Below are positions 1,694 to 57,389 of a stretch of 64,000 nt of DNA, piece by piece. The translations under genes were made by a program, and so were the position numbers. The notes beneath the pieces were generated by a model. It was not told where the DNA came from. It did not search any database and worked only from the letters and a program-made list of their open reading frames with translations. Positions within the stretch are counted from its first letter, which is position 1. The number at the start of each line of letters is the position of its first letter. The DNA is from Shigella phage SSE1. The stretch lies in the sequence record MK639187; one strand, given 5' to 3'.

Positions 1694-1732
1694 ATTATAA
1701 ATACCCTTATCTATTTAAGGTAAGGGTTTATC

Positions 1733-2206
1733 ATGTTATTATCAGGCGCAAAATATAAAGAAGAAAAACAAAAATTTTATGATGCACAGAATGGTAAGTG
1801 TCCTATTTGCCACCGTGAATTAGACCCTGATGTTCAAGGTAACCATCTTGACCACGACCATGAATTAAACGGGCCAAAAGCCGGTAGAGTTCGTGGATTA
1901 CTCTGTAATCTGTGCAACGCAGCAGAAGGCCAAATGAAGCATAAGTTCAACCGTTCCGGTCTTAAAGGACGTGATGTCGACTACCTCGAATGGCTTGAAG
2001 CTCTTCTTGCTTATTTGAAACAAGATTATTCTGATAATAATATCCATCCTAATTTTGTTCCAGACAAAACTAAAGAGTTCTCAAGACTAGGTAAAGAGGA
2101 AATGATGGCTGAGATGCTTCAAAGAGGATTTGAATATAATGAATCTGACACCAAAACACAATTAATAGCTTCATTTAAGAAGCAGCTTAGAAAGAGTTTA
2201 AAATGA
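1733..2206 (+). CDS. 49: Endonuclease VII, Holliday junction resolvase (gp49)
   Basis: 157 aa, CPIC...HLDHDHELNGPKAGRVRGLLCNLCN zinc/HNH-like core, recognised as T4 endo VII-like. Confidence 0.9.
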   Translation: MLLSGAKYKEEKQKFYDAQNGKCPICHRELDPDVQGNHLDHDHELNGPKAGRVRGLLCNLCNAAEGQMKHKFNRSGLKGRDVDYLEWLEALLAYLKQDYSDNNIHPNFVPDKTKEFSRLGKEEMMAEMLQRGFEYNESDTKTQLIASFKKQLRKSLK

Positions 2207-15921: not shown

Positions 15922-18633
15922 ATGAAAGAATTTTACTTAACGGTTGAACAGATTGGTGATTCAATTTTTGAACGTTACATCGATTCTAATGGCCGTGAAC
16001 GTACTCGTGAAGTAGAATATAAACCATCACTGTTTGCTCATTGTCCGGAAAGTCAGGCTACGAAATATTTCGATATCTACGGTAAGCCGTGTACTCGTAA
16101 GTTGTTCGCCAATATGCGTGATGCGTCTCAATGGATTAAACGCATGGAAGATATCGGACTTGAAGCACTTGGCATGGACGATTTCAAATTGGCGTATTTG
16201 TCTGACACTTATAACTATGAAATCAAATACGACCATACAAAAATTCGTGTGGCTAACTTCGACATCGAAGTAACATCTCCGGATGGGTTCCCTGAGCCGT
16301 CACAAGCAAAACATCCGATTGATGCTATCACCCATTATGACTCAATTGATGACAGGTTCTACGTATTTGATCTATTGAATTCTCCATATGGTAATGTAGA
16401 AGAATGGTCTATCGAAATTGCGGCTAAGCTTCAAGAACAAGGTGGTGATGAAGTTCCATCCGAAATTATCGATAAAATCATTTATATGCCGTTCGATAAC
16501 GAAAAAGAATTGTTGATGGAATATCTCAACTTCTGGCAACAGAAAACTCCTGTCATTTTGACTGGATGGAACGTTGAGTCATTTGATATTCCATATGTGT
16601 ATAACCGAATCAAGAATATTTTTGGCGAATCTACTGCGAAACGTTTATCACCACATCGCAAGACTCGTGTTAAAGTTATTGAAAACATGTATGGTTCTCG
16701 TGAAATCATTACATTGTTCGGTATCTCTGTTCTTGATTACATTGACCTTTACAAAAAATTCTCTTTTACCAATCAACCATCATATTCTCTGGATTACATT
16801 TCAGAATTTGAATTGAACGTTGGTAAACTGAAATATGACGGCCCTATTTCTAAGCTTCGTGAAAGCAATCACCAACGATATATTTCTTATAACATTATCG
16901 ACGTGTATCGTGTATTGCAAATTGATGCTAAGCGTCAGTTCATCAACTTGAGTTTGGACATGGGTTATTATGCTAAAATTCAGATTCAATCTGTGTTTAG
17001 CCCAATTAAAACATGGGATGCTATTATTTTTAATAGCCTTAAAGAGCAGAACAAGGTGATTCCACAAGGCCGTTCTCACCCGGTTCAACCTTATCCTGGC
17101 GCTTTTGTTAAGGAACCTATTCCAAATCGATACAAATATGTAATGAGTTTCGACCTTACATCTCTGTATCCAAGTATTATTCGCCAAGTGAATATTAGCC
17201 CAGAAACAATAGCAGGAACGTTTAAAGTAGCTCCACTGCATGATTATATTAACGCAATCGCTGAACGTCCTTCTGATGTGTACAGTTGTTCTCCTAACGG
17301 CATGATGTATTATAAAGACCGTGATGGTGTAGTTCCAACTGAAATCACTAAGGTCTTTAATCAACGTAAAGAACATAAAGGTTACATGCTTGCGGCTCAA
17401 CGTAATGGTGAAATAATTAAAGAGGCATTGCATAATCCTAATCTTTCTGTTGACGAACCATTAGATGTTGATTATCGTTTCGACTTCAGTGATGAGATTA
17501 AAGAAAAGATTAAAAAGTTGTCCGCTAAATCTCTTAATGAAATGTTGTTTAGAGCTCAACGTACTGAAGTTGCAGGTATGACTGCCCAAATTAACCGTAA
17601 ATTGCTTATCAACTCACTTTATGGTGCACTTGGCAACGTTTGGTTCCGTTATTATGATTTGCGTAATGCTACTGCAATCACAACATTTGGTCAAATGGCT
17701 TTACAGTGGATTGAACGTAAAGTTAATGAATATCTGAATGAAGTTTGTGGTACAGAAGGTGAAGCTTTCGTTCTTTATGGTGATACAGACTCTATTTACG
17801 TATCTGCTGATAAAATTATCGATAAGGTTGGTGAATCTAAATTCCGTGATACCAACCATTGGGTAGACTTCTTAGATAAGTTTGCACGTGAACGTATGGA
17901 ACCAGCTATTGATAGAGGTTTCCGTGAAATGTGTGAATACATGAACAATAAACAACACTTAATGTTCATGGACCGAGAAGCTATCGCTGGGCCTCCACTC
18001 GGTTCTAAAGGTATTGGTGGATTCTGGACTGGTAAGAAACGTTATGCATTAAACGTGTGGGATATGGAAGGTACTCGTTACGCTGAGCCTAAACTCAAAA
18101 TCATGGGTCTAGAGACTCAGAAATCTTCGACTCCTAAAGCAGTACAGAAAGCTCTTAAAGAATGTATTCGTCGTATGCTTCAAGAAGGTGAAGAATCATT
18201 ACAAGAATATTTTAAAGAGTTTGAAAAAGAATTCCGTCAATTGAATTATATTAGCATCGCGTCGGTATCTTCTGCGAATAACATTGCTAAATATGATGTA
18301 GGTGGATTCCCTGGTCCCAAATGCCCGTTCCATATTCGTGGAATTCTGACGTATAACCGGGCTATCAAAGGTAATATCGATGCACCGCAAGTTGTAGAAG
18401 GTGAAAAAGTATATGTTCTGCCTTTACGTGAAGGAAACCCATTCGGTGATAAATGTATCGCATGGCCTTCTGGTACTGAAATCACAGATTTAATTAAAGA
18501 CGACGTACTTCATTGGATGGACTACACTGTTCTCCTTGAGAAGACATTTATTAAACCACTTGAAGGATTCACATCAGCAGCGAAACTCGATTACGAGAAG
18601 AAAGCATCTCTATTCGATATGTTCGATTTTTGA
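15922..18633 (+). CDS. 43: DNA polymerase gp43 (family B)
   Basis: 903 aa; exo motifs (FDIEV), polymerase motifs (DxxSLYPS, YGDTDS); same length as RB69 polymerase. Confidence 0.97.
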   Translation: MKEFYLTVEQIGDSIFERYIDSNGRERTREVEYKPSLFAHCPESQATKYFDIYGKPCTRKLFANMRDASQWIKRMEDIGLEALGMDDFKLAYLSDTYNYEIKYDHTKIRVANFDIEVTSPDGFPEPSQAKHPIDAITHYDSIDDRFYVFDLLNSPYGNVEEWSIEIAAKLQEQGGDEVPSEIIDKIIYMPFDNEKELLMEYLNFWQQKTPVILTGWNVESFDIPYVYNRIKNIFGESTAKRLSPHRKTRVKVIENMYGSREIITLFGISVLDYIDLYKKFSFTNQPSYSLDYISEFELNVGKLKYDGPISKLRESNHQRYISYNIIDVYRVLQIDAKRQFINLSLDMGYYAKIQIQSVFSPIKTWDAIIFNSLKEQNKVIPQGRSHPVQPYPGAFVKEPIPNRYKYVMSFDLTSLYPSIIRQVNISPETIAGTFKVAPLHDYINAIAERPSDVYSCSPNGMMYYKDRDGVVPTEITKVFNQRKEHKGYMLAAQRNGEIIKEALHNPNLSVDEPLDVDYRFDFSDEIKEKIKKLSAKSLNEMLFRAQRTEVAGMTAQINRKLLINSLYGALGNVWFRYYDLRNATAITTFGQMALQWIERKVNEYLNEVCGTEGEAFVLYGDTDSIYVSADKIIDKVGESKFRDTNHWVDFLDKFARERMEPAIDRGFREMCEYMNNKQHLMFMDREAIAGPPLGSKGIGGFWTGKKRYALNVWDMEGTRYAEPKLKIMGLETQKSSTPKAVQKALKECIRRMLQEGEESLQEYFKEFEKEFRQLNYISIASVSSANNIAKYDVGGFPGPKCPFHIRGILTYNRAIKGNIDAPQVVEGEKVYVLPLREGNPFGDKCIAWPSGTEITDLIKDDVLHWMDYTVLLEKTFIKPLEGFTSAAKLDYEKKASLFDMFDF

Positions 18634-31280: not shown

Positions 31281-31748
31281 ATGGGTATTATTAACACTGC
31301 AATAGATTCTGTTTATGCATATAAGTTTATTCGACTAATGCAAAAACCTTTTACCGAATGGAAAGCATACGAAGCCAAAATCATCGATGAACGTGGAAGT
31401 GTTCTTAAACGTCCTTCTACTCCCGAAGAAAAAGCGGCGTATACACCTTTTCATGCTTCAGTTCGTTCAATGAAGCGAATGATGAGCACTGTTCCGGGTC
31501 TTAATGGAATGGCCTCAATGATGTCTGCCTGGAGTGCTGTAGCTTCACGCTATAACATTACGGAAGAACAGCAGAAAGAAATATTTAAAGAACTCCCTTT
31601 ATTTGAGGATATGGTTGCTGGTGATTCAGGTGGCAGCCCTCAAGCTATTGCATCAGGAACAACTACAGGTGCAGTAGTAAATAAAGGTCCAGAACAAATT
31701 CCTTCCAAGAAAAGAAAGCGAATTAAAGTAAATATTAATAAGTTGTGA
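31281..31748 (+). CDS. Hypothetical protein
   Basis: ATG 31281 after AGGAGG. Confidence 0.5.
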   Translation: MGIINTAIDSVYAYKFIRLMQKPFTEWKAYEAKIIDERGSVLKRPSTPEEKAAYTPFHASVRSMKRMMSTVPGLNGMASMMSAWSAVASRYNITEEQQKEIFKELPLFEDMVAGDSGGSPQAIASGTTTGAVVNKGPEQIPSKKRKRIKVNINKL

Positions 31749-31787
31749 TATGATGGCCTTATTAATTTAAGGCCTCTGGAGAATACT

Positions 31788-32810
31788 ATGGCTGAATGGA
31801 TAGATAATGAATTTGCTTATCGTGCGTTTTCTCACCTACCTCGTTTTAGACAAATCAATAATTCAAGCACATTTAAATTAACATTTCGTTGTCCAGTTTG
31901 TGGCGACTCCCAGACAGATGCAATGAAAGCTCGCGGTTGGTATTATGGCGGTACTCCTGGTAATGTACATTGCTATAACTGCCAATACCACAATACAATT
32001 TCCGGATACTTAAAAGAGTATGATGAAGAGCTTTACCGCGAATATCTAATGGAAGTTCGTAAAGAAAAAGCTAGAATGGAACCAAAGATTGAAAAGGTTC
32101 CTGAAGCTAAGCCGGAGCCAGAGAAAAAGACTATAAATTCTTTGCCGTCTTGTTCTCGTCTGGACAAGCTGCCTGAAGAGCATCCTATTGTGAAATATGT
32201 TAAGTCTCGATGCATTCCTAAAGAATCATGGAACAGATTATGGTTCACATTAGAATGGCCTAAATTGGTCAACAAGATTCAACCTGGTACGTATAAGAAA
32301 GAGATTCCCGAACCACGTTTAGTGATTCCTATTTTTAATAAAGACGGGAAGGCTGAGTCATTCCAAGGACGTGCACTTCGTAAAGATGCTCCTCAGAAAT
32401 ATATCACTATTAAAGCGTTTGAGTCCGCAACAAAAATTTATGGTGTTGAACGTGTTAAGGAAGGGGACGTCTGGGTAATGGAAGGCCCTATTGATAGTTT
32501 ATTCATACCCAATGCAATCGCTATTACAGGCGGCTCAATAGATTTAGATGTGGTACCATTTAAAGAACGTCGGGTATGGGTAATGGATAATGAACCTAGG
32601 CATCCGGATACTATAGCTCGCATGAAGCGATTAGTTGATGCAGGCGAACGTGTCATGTTCTGGGACCGAGCTCCATGGAGATCAAAGGATGTGAATGATA
32701 TGGTAATGAAAGAAAATGCAACACCACAAGAAATTTTAGAATATATGAAACAGAATATTTCAAGTGGGTTGCATGCTAAAATGAGATTATCTCGTTATTC
32801 GAAGATTTAA
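31788..32810 (+). CDS. 61: DNA primase gp61
   Basis: 340 aa, N-terminal zinc ribbon CPVCGD...CYNC, TOPRIM-like core. Confidence 0.85.
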   Translation: MAEWIDNEFAYRAFSHLPRFRQINNSSTFKLTFRCPVCGDSQTDAMKARGWYYGGTPGNVHCYNCQYHNTISGYLKEYDEELYREYLMEVRKEKARMEPKIEKVPEAKPEPEKKTINSLPSCSRLDKLPEEHPIVKYVKSRCIPKESWNRLWFTLEWPKLVNKIQPGTYKKEIPEPRLVIPIFNKDGKAESFQGRALRKDAPQKYITIKAFESATKIYGVERVKEGDVWVMEGPIDSLFIPNAIAITGGSIDLDVVPFKERRVWVMDNEPRHPDTIARMKRLVDAGERVMFWDRAPWRSKDVNDMVMKENATPQEILEYMKQNISSGLHAKMRLSRYSKI

Positions 32811-33004
32811 ACAAGCCCTATAATAGCAAAGGCCAAATCAACTACAGTATCCAATGGAACAGAAGGAACTATAATACCATGGGCAACTAACAATGGCGCA
32901 ATCCCGAAGTTCCATGAAATAATGCCACCTACAACTATTGCAGCGATAGCAGTTTTCTTTTTATTGCCTTTAATAGCGTTGATTAACGATGGAAGTTTAA
33001 ACAT
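32807..33004 (-). CDS. Small membrane protein on the opposite strand
   Basis: 65 aa, two hydrophobic segments; SD AAGGAGA and late-promoter-like AATAAATA upstream on the - strand. Confidence 0.5.
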   Translation of the reverse strand: MFKLPSLINAIKGNKKKTAIAAIVVGGIISWNFGIAPLLVAHGIIVPSVPLDTVVDLAFAIIGLV

Positions 33005-33025
33005 AATATCTCCTTAGTTACCTAT

Positions 33026-33033
33026 TATTTATT
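33026..33033 (-). promoter_or_regulatory. Late-promoter-like AATAAATA upstream of the - strand membrane ORF
   Basis: One mismatch to TATAAATA, about 22 nt upstream of the ATG. Confidence 0.35.
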
Positions 33034-33091
33034 ACGCTTTATAAAATTAATGTTAGAATTAACTCTCTTATACTGAATTGAAAGGATATAT

Positions 33092-33742
33092 GTGAATTAC
33101 CAAAAAATTTACTCGGATTTAATTACAAAAGCTAAATGCCGGCATCTTGGCGGATATAAAGAACGCCATCATATAATTCCTAGATGTATGGGAGGAGCAG
33201 ATGGCAAAAACAATCTTGTTGAGTTAACTGCGCGTGAGCATTTTATAGCTCATAGATTATTAACTAAAATATATCCAGATGTGAGAGGATTGCATTATGC
33301 TGTAAATTTAATGCGATATAATAAAGGTGTTAAATTAACAAGTAGATTAATAGAAACCCTTAAAATCCAAAACTCTGTTCTTTTCTCGGGTGAAAATAAT
33401 CCTAGATATGGCAAGCCGTCATGGATTAAAGGTAAAAAGACTCCAGAAGAAACTAAAGCCAAAATGCGTCTAGCTCATAAAGGTAAAATTATATCCGATG
33501 AAGCCAAGGCTAATATGAGTAAAGCCCGAAAAGGAAGATTTAGCGGTAAAAATTCGCCTCGATATGGTTTACCAAATCCTAGGCGAGGAGAAATATGGAA
33601 TAGTTATGATGCGCTTTATGAATTATGGGTTTATAATAATAGACCTAAGCGCACAAAATTTAATAAAATAGCTGTCAAGGCAGGTTATCCTAATATCTGC
33701 TATAGACATATGATAGAAAACTTCATAAGAAAGGAAAATAAC
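33092..33742 (+). CDS. HNH homing-endonuclease-like domain, reads in frame into gp56 without a stop
   Basis: GTG start; HHIIPRCMGG HNH core; NUMOD3-like repeats (GENNPRYGKP, GKNSPRYGLP). Confidence 0.65.
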
Positions 33743-34264
33743 ATGCCACATTTCAACGAATGTAGTCAACTGATCGAAGGTGTTGATAAAGCAGAAGAAG
33801 CTTATTTTAATGCTCTGATTCATGAAGATAAAGACCCACTGCAGGTAATGCTTGATATGCAGAAATCTTTACAGGTTCGTCTGGCAAATGACAAGCCTGA
33901 ACATAACAAACATCCTGATGAATTAGCCACTGCTGGCGATGTTGTTGATTGGCTGCGTAATCAGAAAGATTATATTGATGATGAATTCCGTGAACTGCTG
34001 ACTTCACTTGGTGGTATGAGCAATGGTGAAAAAGCCGCTAGCTCTGTATGGAAGCCTTGGAAAGCTCAACATGCTGAATATCGAAATCGTCGTATCTATG
34101 AACTGTCTCCTGAAGACCAGCTTGAAATTAAATTCGAGATGATTGATATTCTGCACTTCGTTCTGAACATGTTCCAAGGTCTGGGTCTTTCTGCTGAAGA
34201 AATCTTTAAACTTTACTACTTGAAAAACCAACACAACTTTGAACGCCAGGATAATGGTTACTGA
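33743..34264 (+). CDS. 56: dCTP pyrophosphatase gp56
   Basis: Internal ATG 33743 after AAGGAAA; 173 aa recognised as T4 gp56-like. Confidence 0.85.
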   Translation: MPHFNECSQLIEGVDKAEEAYFNALIHEDKDPLQVMLDMQKSLQVRLANDKPEHNKHPDELATAGDVVDWLRNQKDYIDDEFRELLTSLGGMSNGEKAASSVWKPWKAQHAEYRNRRIYELSPEDQLEIKFEMIDILHFVLNMFQGLGLSAEEIFKLYYLKNQHNFERQDNGY

Positions 34265-34270
34265 TTAAGT

Positions 34271-34278
34271 TATAAATA
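34271..34278 (+). promoter_or_regulatory. T4 late promoter TATAAATA upstream of soc
   Basis: Exact consensus 32 nt upstream of soc ATG. Confidence 0.6.
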
Positions 34279-34309
34279 CACCTGTAATTAAACAACAAAG
34301 GAGTTAATT

Positions 34310-34546
34310 ATGGGTGGTTACGTTAATATCAAAACCTTTACGCATCCTGCAGGTGAAGGCAAAGAAGTTAAAGGTATGGAAGTTTCTGTACCGTTTGAGA
34401 TTTATTCAAACGAACATCGGATTGCAGATTCTCATTACCAAATCTTTCCATCAGAAAAGGCAGCTTATTCTGATGTCGTTTCTGATGCAGCAACTTGGAA
34501 AACTAAGAACGCAGCAATGTTTACCCCTACACCAGTAAGTGGTTAA
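34310..34546 (+). CDS. soc: Small outer capsid protein Soc
   Basis: 78 aa; GYVNIKTF and FPSEKAAYS recognised as Soc-like; TATAAATA late promoter upstream. Confidence 0.8.
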   Translation: MGGYVNIKTFTHPAGEGKEVKGMEVSVPFEIYSNEHRIADSHYQIFPSEKAAYSDVVSDAATWKTKNAAMFTPTPVSG

Positions 34547-56453: not shown

Positions 56454-56726
56454 ATGAATAAAGACATTGAAATCGTACGTGAAATTATTACTATTGCTTC
56501 TATTTTGATTAAATTCTCTAGGGAAGATATTGTTGAAGACCGAGCAAGTTTCATCGGATTCTTGAATGAGATTGGAATTAAAAAAGATGGTCGGCAGCTA
56601 AATCAGAATTCTTTTAGAAAACTAATTACAAATTTAACTGCCGAAGAAAAGAAAACACTGATTGGTGAATTCAATGAAGGTTTTGAAAATATTTATCGTC
56701 ATTTAGCGATGTATTCTAACAACTAA
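56454..56726 (+). CDS. asiA: Anti-sigma70 factor AsiA
   Basis: 90 aa, recognised as T4 AsiA-like across its length. Confidence 0.9.
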   Translation: MNKDIEIVREIITIASILIKFSREDIVEDRASFIGFLNEIGIKKDGRQLNQNSFRKLITNLTAEEKKTLIGEFNEGFENIYRHLAMYSNN

Positions 56727-57389
56727 TTATTTAGCCCTTCCTAGTATTCGGATCGCTTGGTTGCATATAGCCGCTAAGCGATCTTCCTCAAGTATATTAT
56801 TATTCCCCTTATACCAATACATCGCCACAGTTCCAGCATAGATGTTATCCAAATTAAAGTATGGACAACTATACATATAAGAAAGTTCGGCAGTCTTAGA
56901 TTTTGTAGGCAAAAATGCAAATTCTGATTTAGACGAGAAATGACGGCCACTTAAATGAATTATATATTCATTAGCCGTTTTATCCACCGGGAATCCACCA
57001 AGGGACTTTTCAGAAATTGTGCTAGGTAGTTTGCCTTCATAAGCTATAAGGTCGACAAAATAATTTAAGTTTTTAGGTCTGAAAGAATACACAGCACTAA
57101 AATCTGCACCAGATGAGATATGAACTATTTGCAGTTGTTCTAGAGCCGCAGATTCAAAACGTAAAGCTCGTTCTTTTTGGATTATTTCAGTATAAGTATC
57201 ATACTTAGCTCTTACATAATAATCCAGCAAAATACTTCCTTTGTACCATATTAGTGCCATTAGGAACAAAAGAATAATTACCGCTACTCGGGACATTAAA
57301 ACCTTTCCAGTAGCGTTATCTTTGAAAATACGATCTAGCAACCCAAATAGAATATCACTAGGCGAAAATGACACTTTTGGTGTTGCCAT
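56727..57389 (-). CDS. t: Holin T
   Basis: 220 aa, N-terminal TM segment, recognised as T4 holin-like. Confidence 0.9.
   Translation of the reverse strand: MATPKVSFSPSDILFGLLDRIFKDNATGKVLMSRVAVIILLFLMALIWYKGSILLDYYVRAKYDTYTEIIQKERALRFESAALEQLQIVHISSGADFSAVYSFRPKNLNYFVDLIAYEGKLPSTISEKSLGGFPVDKTANEYIIHLSGRHFSSKSEFAFLPTKSKTAELSYMYSCPYFNLDNIYAGTVAMYWYKGNNNILEEDRLAAICNQAIRILGRAK

Follow-up and report, generated by a model that had tools for sequence, protein, structure and literature searches.

A 65-residue open reading frame that runs against the early strand of a T-even phage, next to the primase gene 61, is practically beyond doubt a real protein-coding gene; because purifying selection acts on its frame, the selected product is a protein. 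Our best account, to which we assign a probability of roughly 0.6, is that of a small accessory late gene whose product would be a low-dose, single-pass inner-membrane microprotein; a part in late envelope events is a guess. The gene itself is already catalogued, as RB69ORF029w in phage RB69 and, under the label 'hypothetical', in the majority of the listed phage records. What sequence comparison adds is an ortholog in T4 that has gone unannotated, a reversed position that appears fixed in the Tevenvirinae genera sampled, and a conserved, sub-consensus candidate late promoter.

We regard this as a useful correction of annotation and regulation, and as no surprise, because on present evidence the gene encodes a non-essential hypothetical protein. 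T4 is the reference for this group of phages, and screens such as HIDEN-SEQ, which uses a T4D annotation, inherit its gene list, from which a conserved, selected and position-fixed gene is missing. Adding the gene to that list would allow transposon, RNA-seq and proteomic data to be re-read for a phenotype.

A reversed reading frame in the early gene block

The window, to which all coordinates refer unless stated otherwise, is the whole stretch of 64,000 nucleotides from Shigella phage SSE1 (record MK639187) that was analysed. Megablast of positions 31700-34400 places it among the RB69-like T-even phages (Mosigvirus), with phage AV111 as the best match (97.9%, full length). Along the locus, the 61.x genes are followed by primase gene 61 (+), the 65-aa ORF (-), a fusion of an HNH endonuclease with gp56 (+), and soc (Table 1). 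An initial annotation of the sequence had described the ORF, preceded by a strong Shine-Dalgarno sequence, as the only - strand gene among the early genes, and both statements hold. The + strand block of the window spans position 1 to asiA at 56726, and within these ~56.7 kb of early genes the ORF is the sole supported - strand gene. The annotation of AV111 agrees: between holin t and a point beyond pin, it has no opposite-strand CDS other than the counterpart of the ORF. A scan of the gaps in the window turned up three more small ORFs on the - strand, and none of the three matched a PHROG family.

Table 1. Features of the locus and their coordinates in the window.
Feature	Position	Strand	Evidence or remark
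65-aa ORF, RB69ORF029w ortholog, PHROG 2024	32807..33004	-	PHROG match, dN/dS, invariant residues, hydropathy, AlphaFold2 (AF2); 65 aa counted from the ATG
Shine-Dalgarno (SD) AAGGAG	33010..33015	-	5 nt before the ATG
AATAAATA, candidate T4-type late promoter variant, A at -13	33026..33033	-	depleted motif, core kept, published consensus
Stop codons of the ORF and primase gene 61, tail-to-tail overlap	32807..32810	.	
Gene 61, DNA primase, convergent neighbour	31788..32810	+	
Divergent intergenic region, ORF to HNH/gp56 start, 87 nt	33005..33091	.	alignment with HX01
HNH homing endonuclease fused in frame to gp56 dCTPase	33092..34264	+	context only
HNH part of the gp56 fusion	33092..33742	+	gp56's own ATG at 33743
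Late-promoter box of soc	34271..34278	+	SD close behind, ATG at 34310
Holin t	56727..57389	-	opens the - strand late block

The 4-nt overlap between the stop codons of the ORF and of gene 61 is also found in T4, G50, Bas38, Bas42 and Bas45. In other lineages it is replaced by a short spacer, which in some of them carries a GC hairpin.

Could the ORF be cargo of the homing endonuclease next to it? The initial annotation was correct in placing the ORF beside an HNH insert, which starts 88 nt upstream of its ATG, and this proximity is what speaks for such a passenger status. However, HX01, RB69 and a20, which are free of the insert, have the same ORF and the same upstream region. Homology with HX01 spans the whole intergenic region and breaks exactly at the gp56 ribosome-binding site. 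Moreover, the endonuclease is Tequatrovirus-like, with 99% identity to a gene that occupies this locus in free-standing form in Tequatrovirus G50, fPS-2 and others, whereas the ORF is of the Mosigvirus type. The boundaries of the insert exclude the ORF and thereby refute its being HNH cargo, for which we see next to no chance. The comparison instead identifies the HNH neighbour as a coincidental, recent insertion, unrelated to the ORF. An A-run that is one base shorter in the window and in AV111 than in the free-standing version has cost the endonuclease its stop codon and fused it in frame to gp56.

Conservation of the reading frame and an ortholog in T4

The protein matches PHROG 2024, a family with no function assigned, over its entire length (E 1.9e-27, residues 1-65 on profile positions 1-65 of 65). 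A tblastn search with the window protein retrieved 692 phage records, 685 of which cover at least 80% of the query. Identity to the window protein is at least 83% in Mosigvirus, ~54% in Tequatrovirus including T4, and 45-49% in Gaprivervirus. Two distant members, used as tblastn queries in their turn, gave 183 and 594 matching records that partly overlap the 692 and extend the set to phages of Klebsiella, Citrobacter, Salmonella and Enterobacter. Only nine clusters were matched when a profile was searched against 1.84 billion representative proteins. Even the weak members (E ~1e-4, ~25% identity in the alignment) are located between gp61 and gp56 on the opposite strand, and the same synteny was confirmed in Jiaodavirus, Gelderlandvirus and Kanagawavirus. 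Orthologs thus lie between primase gene 61 and dam/56, in reversed orientation, in every Tevenvirinae genus sampled. In RB49, a Krischvirus outside the Tevenvirinae, genes 61 and 56 are just 14 nt apart, which leaves no room for the gene. Given this shared synteny across lineages, the gene appears to be a fixed component of the sampled Tevenvirinae genera.

RB69ORF029w (NP_861719), which is annotated in the RB69 RefSeq record, is the same gene: it is 98% identical, equal in length, position, orientation and upstream sequence, and shows no structural difference from the window gene. It was listed among the RB69 ORFs without a T4 ortholog by Nolan et al. 2006 (PMC1524935). A search of the literature under the names 61.-1, dam.-1 and RB69ORF029w found no paper on the gene.

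The T4 ortholog, of 66 aa, occupies positions 17738-17938 (+) of T4, in the 309-bp gap between dam and 61. It is absent from the annotation of NC_000866.4 and from the curated record AF158101.6, and also from the T4D annotation of a 2025 transposon study (10.1101/2025.11.20.689424). In a recent T4 assembly the ortholog was called by Pyrodigal; for the exact T4 protein sequence, no NCBI accession was found in the protein collection.

By leaving the dam-61 gap empty, AF158101.6 and NC_000866.4 implicitly treat the locus as non-coding spacer, in which the ORF would have arisen by chance. The comparative data refute this reading. Nei-Gojobori dN/dS ratios, although synonymous sites are saturated between genera, range from 0.04 to 0.36 in the 12 computable pairs, well below 1, and point to purifying selection on the reading frame. 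The ORF is kept intact in 685 of the 692 matching records, and length, SD and synteny are retained out to the members with ~25% identity. A GGAG or GGAGG was present in all orthologous loci inspected. We therefore consider a chance ORF extremely unlikely.

A candidate late promoter of sub-consensus sequence

How might a gene that faces against the early strand be transcribed? On the - strand upstream of the ORF (33005..33091) no sigma-70-like site was found, and no MotA-box TGCTT was seen in the sequence; an early or middle promoter on this strand was rejected. A T4-type late promoter requires no -35 element and can be placed on either strand, with a short leader to the SD and ATG. The initial annotation had pointed out a motif of this kind, and its observation is borne out. 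AATAAATA is found 21 nt before the ATG, the layout of soc, t and gene 49, and it matches the consensus box TATAAATA at seven of eight positions.

In the window, such words are rarer than chance would have it. AATAAATA occurs three times (9.8 expected), TATAAATA four times (7.7 expected), and the ATAAATA core ten times (30.6 expected), a three-fold depletion. Gene 49, soc, t and a tail-fibre gene each have one of the four TATAAATA sites a short way upstream, and the order of box, SD and ATG at the ORF is that of these four sites. Across ~12 sequence contexts upstream of orthologs, the ATAAATA core is located 12-33 nt before the ATG, with the exception of Gelderlandvirus (ATTAAATA), and the flanks cannot be aligned apart from the SD and the core itself. 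We read the motif as more than a chance AT-rich word.

Mosigvirus and some Tequatrovirus carry the box as AATAAATA. KP179 has two sites, a distal one with the GATAAATA that is also present in T4, L023 and L028, and a proximal one with the CATAAATA that is also present in Gaprivervirus, L022, L027 and Kanagawavirus. Gelderlandvirus has ATTAAATA. Across the lineages examined, A, G or C precedes the core, apart from Gelderlandvirus with its ATTAAATA, and the consensus TATAAATA never occurs.

The T4 late promoter has been defined as TATAAATA at -13 to -6, and is perfect at 32 of 50 listed sites. An A at -13, present at nine of these 50, is the commonest known variant, and the strand of the ORF is read only by late transcription in T4-type phages (PMC2988020). 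In RB69, A or T is common at -13, and the late-promoter HMM of Nolan et al. 2006 called no promoter at RB69ORF029w (PMC1524935). Because the promoter features and the published record fit a late promoter, we infer that the gene is expressed late and in a gp55-dependent manner, which we hold to be likely. In the published -13 to -6 register, transcription is predicted to start near 33020, with a leader of ~16 nt. No transcript, 5' end, ribosome footprint or peptide of the ORF was found in the searchable literature. Since position -13 never carries the consensus T, the promoter may be weak, and its recurrence in this form suggests to us that it may be kept weak.

The closest comparison is soc, in T4 and RB69 likewise a small gene within the early block, 1.3 kb from the ORF and with a late-promoter box of its own. 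Unlike the ORF, soc lies on the early strand, has a perfect TATAAATA and encodes a soluble capsid decoration protein; the ORF runs on the other strand, its box is sub-consensus in every case, and its predicted product is a membrane protein.

Late transcription of the ORF would extend into primase gene 61 in the antisense direction. Might the selected function then be late antisense transcription or interference that shuts off the 61-56 early/middle unit, with the ORF merely incidental? The ORF converges on gene 61 and their stop codons overlap, and a search of the - strand found no intrinsic terminator over 6.8 kb downstream of the ORF in the window. However, purifying selection acts on the frame and every lineage retains a strong SD, and in KP179, L023 and L028 a GC hairpin separates the stops of the ORF and the primase gene, so that read-through is not a conserved feature. 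We rate antisense transcription as the selected function highly improbable. With no terminator found behind the ORF, expression of the protein in the window phage may, as a side effect, interfere with gene 61 through antisense transcription.

A predicted membrane microprotein and its possible role

The protein has a GRAVY of 1.24, and its five K/R residues are all found before residue 18, in a cluster that precedes the hydrophobic stretch. AlphaFold2, run on a 30-sequence alignment, predicts helices at residues 4-13, 15-41 and 51-61 (pLDDT 83). The first of these is amphipathic. The second, which is 27 residues long in the model and is a TM helix by hydropathy as well, carries W31-N32-F33 and P37, and is followed by a Pro-rich turn (42-50, with G43 and P47) and by the short hydrophobic helix 51-61. 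Residues M1, W31, P37 and G43 never vary across the wide family, and N32 and P47 hardly do; natural three-codon deletions occur in the N-terminal half of the TM helix. For RB69ORF029w, TMHMM reported one TM at 21-41 and no signal peptide was predicted (Nolan et al. 2006, PMC1524935).

Hydropathy, the AF2 helix and the published TMHMM segment all uphold the small membrane protein of the initial annotation. Its description as a two-segment hydrophobic protein stands only for one full TM helix (~15-41), as the C-terminal helix (51-61) is too short to cross a bilayer. Because of the positive-inside rule, the N-terminus is expected inside and the C-terminus outside, and we consider it very probable from these models that the product is a single-pass inner-membrane protein. 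On the whole, the observation of the initial annotation is confirmed and its interpretation supported. Searches of Pfam, NCBIfam, PDB sequences and BFVD folds gave no match outside the family itself. A match of one distant member to AaeX (E 0.013, 15.8 bits versus a cut-off of 82) was dismissed as noise, as were weak matches to Mlo, GTA-holin and NqrE, far below threshold.

A positively charged n-region followed by a hydrophobic stretch is also what a cleavable Sec signal peptide would offer. In this case the N-terminal 43 residues would be removed and a secreted hydrophobic peptide of ~22 residues would be the active product; in most lineages the -3/-1 rule is satisfied by a conserved A/S/T-x-G ('AHG'). 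The h-region of a Sec signal peptide, however, measures about 7-15 residues before an A-x-A-type site. Here the hydrophobic stretch is far longer, at ~24-27 residues (~27 in the predicted helix), and the AHG site, although present, is ambiguous. The stretch also contains the residues that are most conserved (W31, N32, P37), as would be unusual if it served for targeting alone. The distant member P0079 has Phe at -3, and SignalP was negative for RB69ORF029w (Nolan 2006, PMC1524935). The long helix and the negative published SignalP result led us to reject cleavage as the main reading, and we judge it improbable.

Is the product a holin, pinholin or antiholin? It is small, membrane-bound and apparently late, and the label 'Holin' is attached to one UniProt entry (phage OE5505) and appears in BFVD. 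The OE5505 label, however, appears to be unreviewed, and the window protein matches no holin-family profile, nor any other Pfam or NCBIfam entry. The sole holin match in the family is that of P0079 to GTA_holin_3TM, which is sub-threshold (E 0.1, 13.6 bits versus a cut-off of 24.8). Holins typically have a hydrophilic, charged C-terminal tail after their last TM, whereas this protein ends in ...DLAFAIIGLV, with no K/R after residue 17 and no charged cytoplasmic tail. Nor does it have a periplasmic domain such as T and RI possess. Holin t is already present in these phages, and transposon insertions in the Bas37 counterpart are tolerated (see below), whereas loss of a sole holin would block lysis. 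A holin-type function is in our view unlikely.

Natural functional analogues for exclusion or lysis control may be sought among Imm, Sp, RI, Ac and RI.-1. These are small T-even phage proteins of the membrane or periplasm, and the 41-61 neighbourhood encodes several of them. Family and fold searches revealed no similarity in sequence or fold between the ORF product and these proteins. The genes of Imm and Sp are early and lie on the early strand, and RI combines a SAR domain with a periplasmic domain of ~70 residues, whereas the ORF product has almost no soluble part. Outside phages, AcrZ, MgrB and SgrT are membrane microproteins that regulate larger membrane proteins through residues in or near their TM. 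They resemble the ORF product in size (45-70 aa) and in having a single TM; there is no homology, and the likeness is one of analogy only. A TM-centred function of this type would fit the conservation of W-N-F/Y, P and G in the ORF product.

We propose the following course of events for the small accessory late gene. Early in infection the ORF would be silent, because all early and middle transcription of T4-type phages is on the other strand. Once replication has started, RNA polymerase loaded with gp55, gp33 and gp45 would initiate at the sub-consensus AATAAATA and produce an mRNA with a short leader. For its translation the sequence speaks most directly, with a strong SD before the ATG and a frame that bears the mark of purifying selection. 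The product is predicted to insert into the inner membrane with N in and C out, which would leave the K/R cluster in the cytoplasm and the Pro-rich turn and short hydrophobic helix at the periplasmic face. The conservation pattern suggests that the face formed by W-N-F/Y, P and G makes helix-helix contacts inside the membrane, either between copies of the protein or with a larger envelope protein of phage or host. Where a TM helix conserves a polar Asn, that residue typically drives the association of TM segments. AcrZ and MgrB work through contacts of this kind. We see about an even chance that the product acts through intramembrane binding to a partner. For the late envelope event itself we can offer a guess, with modulation of lysis timing, lysis inhibition or envelope integrity as first choice; the initial annotation's suggestion of lysis timing or exclusion is likewise a guess. 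These last two steps draw on the conservation pattern and on analogy, and a lysis- or envelope-related role, our leading guess, is possible but less likely than not.

More speculative again, and rather doubtful, is that the gene belongs to the T-even late envelope programme, for instance by tuning the T holin and RI antiholin or by targeting a host inner-membrane protein. If this were true, a sub-consensus late promoter that never has T at -13 would set a low dose, and the gene's absence from the T4 reference annotation, together with its dispensability on K-12, would explain why six decades of T4 genetics passed it by. A late, low-dose membrane microprotein could plausibly be an accessory that is still missing from lysis control or from host-specific interactions at the envelope.

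Dispensability can be judged from bas37_0144, the positional ortholog in Bas37, a + strand gene of 201 nt that overlaps the primase gene by 4 nt; its assignment as ortholog rests on a length, strand and overlap equal to those of the Bas38, Bas42 and Bas45 copies. In the HIDEN-SEQ preprint, insertions were recorded at 20 of its 24 TA sites and the gene was classed as Non-essential (bioRxiv 10.1101/2025.11.20.689424). Of the six Bas37 host comparisons in that source, two were examined here, and in both, insertions in bas37_0144 had no significant effect (10.1101/2025.11.20.689424). Since the Bas37 positional ortholog tolerates transposon insertions, it is non-essential, and the gene is dispensable for laboratory growth on E. 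coli K-12. Frameshifted copies are found in the laboratory-evolved T4_ev240 and in ERS-1, the latter an unverified record.

A T4 ortholog and probable late promoters of the early block

An intact 66-aa ortholog of the reversed ORF, the 65-aa membrane-protein gene of the window, is encoded by T4 at 17738-17938 (+) of NC_000866.4 (4739-4939 in our locus extract L003), where it is preceded by GATAAATA and an AGGAGG SD. The 309-bp dam-61 gap of T4 is annotated as empty in NC_000866.4, in the curated record AF158101.6 and in the HIDEN-SEQ T4D annotation.

How common are late-promoter motifs in the window? Across its whole length the core ATAAATA is depleted three-fold on both strands (10 observed, 30.6 expected), which suggests that stray late promoters are selected against. 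Two more GATAAATA sites lie within early genes on the - strand (45008 and 56690), with no SD or ORF behind either. A perfect TATAAATA ahead of gene 49 marks this as another early-block gene with its own late promoter. T4 gene 49 has its own late promoter.

We compared the box of the reversed ORF across lineages (L003, L008, L009, L014-L023, L027, L028, L032-L034). In every lineage it carries A, G or C at -13, or a TA->AT swap, and never the consensus T, unlike the window's other late genes, where TATAAATA is perfect. To judge from this substitution, the promoter of the reversed ORF may be deliberately weak.

Late-promoter and fusion features of the window
Feature	Position	Strand	Remark
Late-promoter core sites	1696, 33026, 34271, 57410, 61790		whole-window scan
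Perfect TATAAATA box	1696-1703	+	29 nt upstream of gene 49, within early block
Gene 49 (endonuclease VII)	1733-2206	+	
HNH homing endonuclease-gp56 dCTPase fusion ORF	33092-34264	+	junction at about 33730-33745

Boundaries, gain and loss of the reversed ORF

In some genera a GC-rich hairpin separates the stops of the ORF and the primase gene (KP179, L032 1693-1710; L023 4205-4225; L028 4208-4230) and is a candidate bidirectional terminator; in Mosigvirus and Tequatrovirus the two stop codons overlap instead. Only 14 nt separate genes 61 and 56 in Krischvirus RB49 (L036 1009-1024), indicating that either the Tevenvirinae lineage acquired the reversed ORF or the RB49 lineage lost it.

Natural variants of 62 and 63 aa lack three codons in frame within the TM helix, in its N-terminal half (a20, L007 1501-1689; proteins P0004 and P0067). 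This half thus tolerates shortening, in contrast to the sequence from W-N-F onward, which is fixed. The ORF is frameshifted in T4_ev240, a laboratory-evolved T4 derivative (L031, about 1450-1460), and in the unverified record ERS-1 (L010), in each case through the change of one base, either within the AAAAA(A) stretch that codes for the Lys cluster or further downstream. Either a dispensable gene has really been lost here, or the frameshifts are homopolymer sequencing errors.

Fusion of an HNH endonuclease to gp56

In the Tequatrovirus phages G50, fPS-2 and WL-3 the same locus carries a free-standing gene to which the HNH homing endonuclease of the window shows 99% aa identity. In the window and its closest relative AV111, an A-run is one base shorter (GGAAAAATAAC to GGAAAATAAC); the endonuclease TAA stop is thereby lost and the protein is joined in frame to gp56 dCTPase, giving an ORF of 390 aa. 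Within it, gp56 retains its own SD and ATG (33743). Its opening codons are Tequatrovirus-like, and look like a co-conversion tract left by cross-genus homing.
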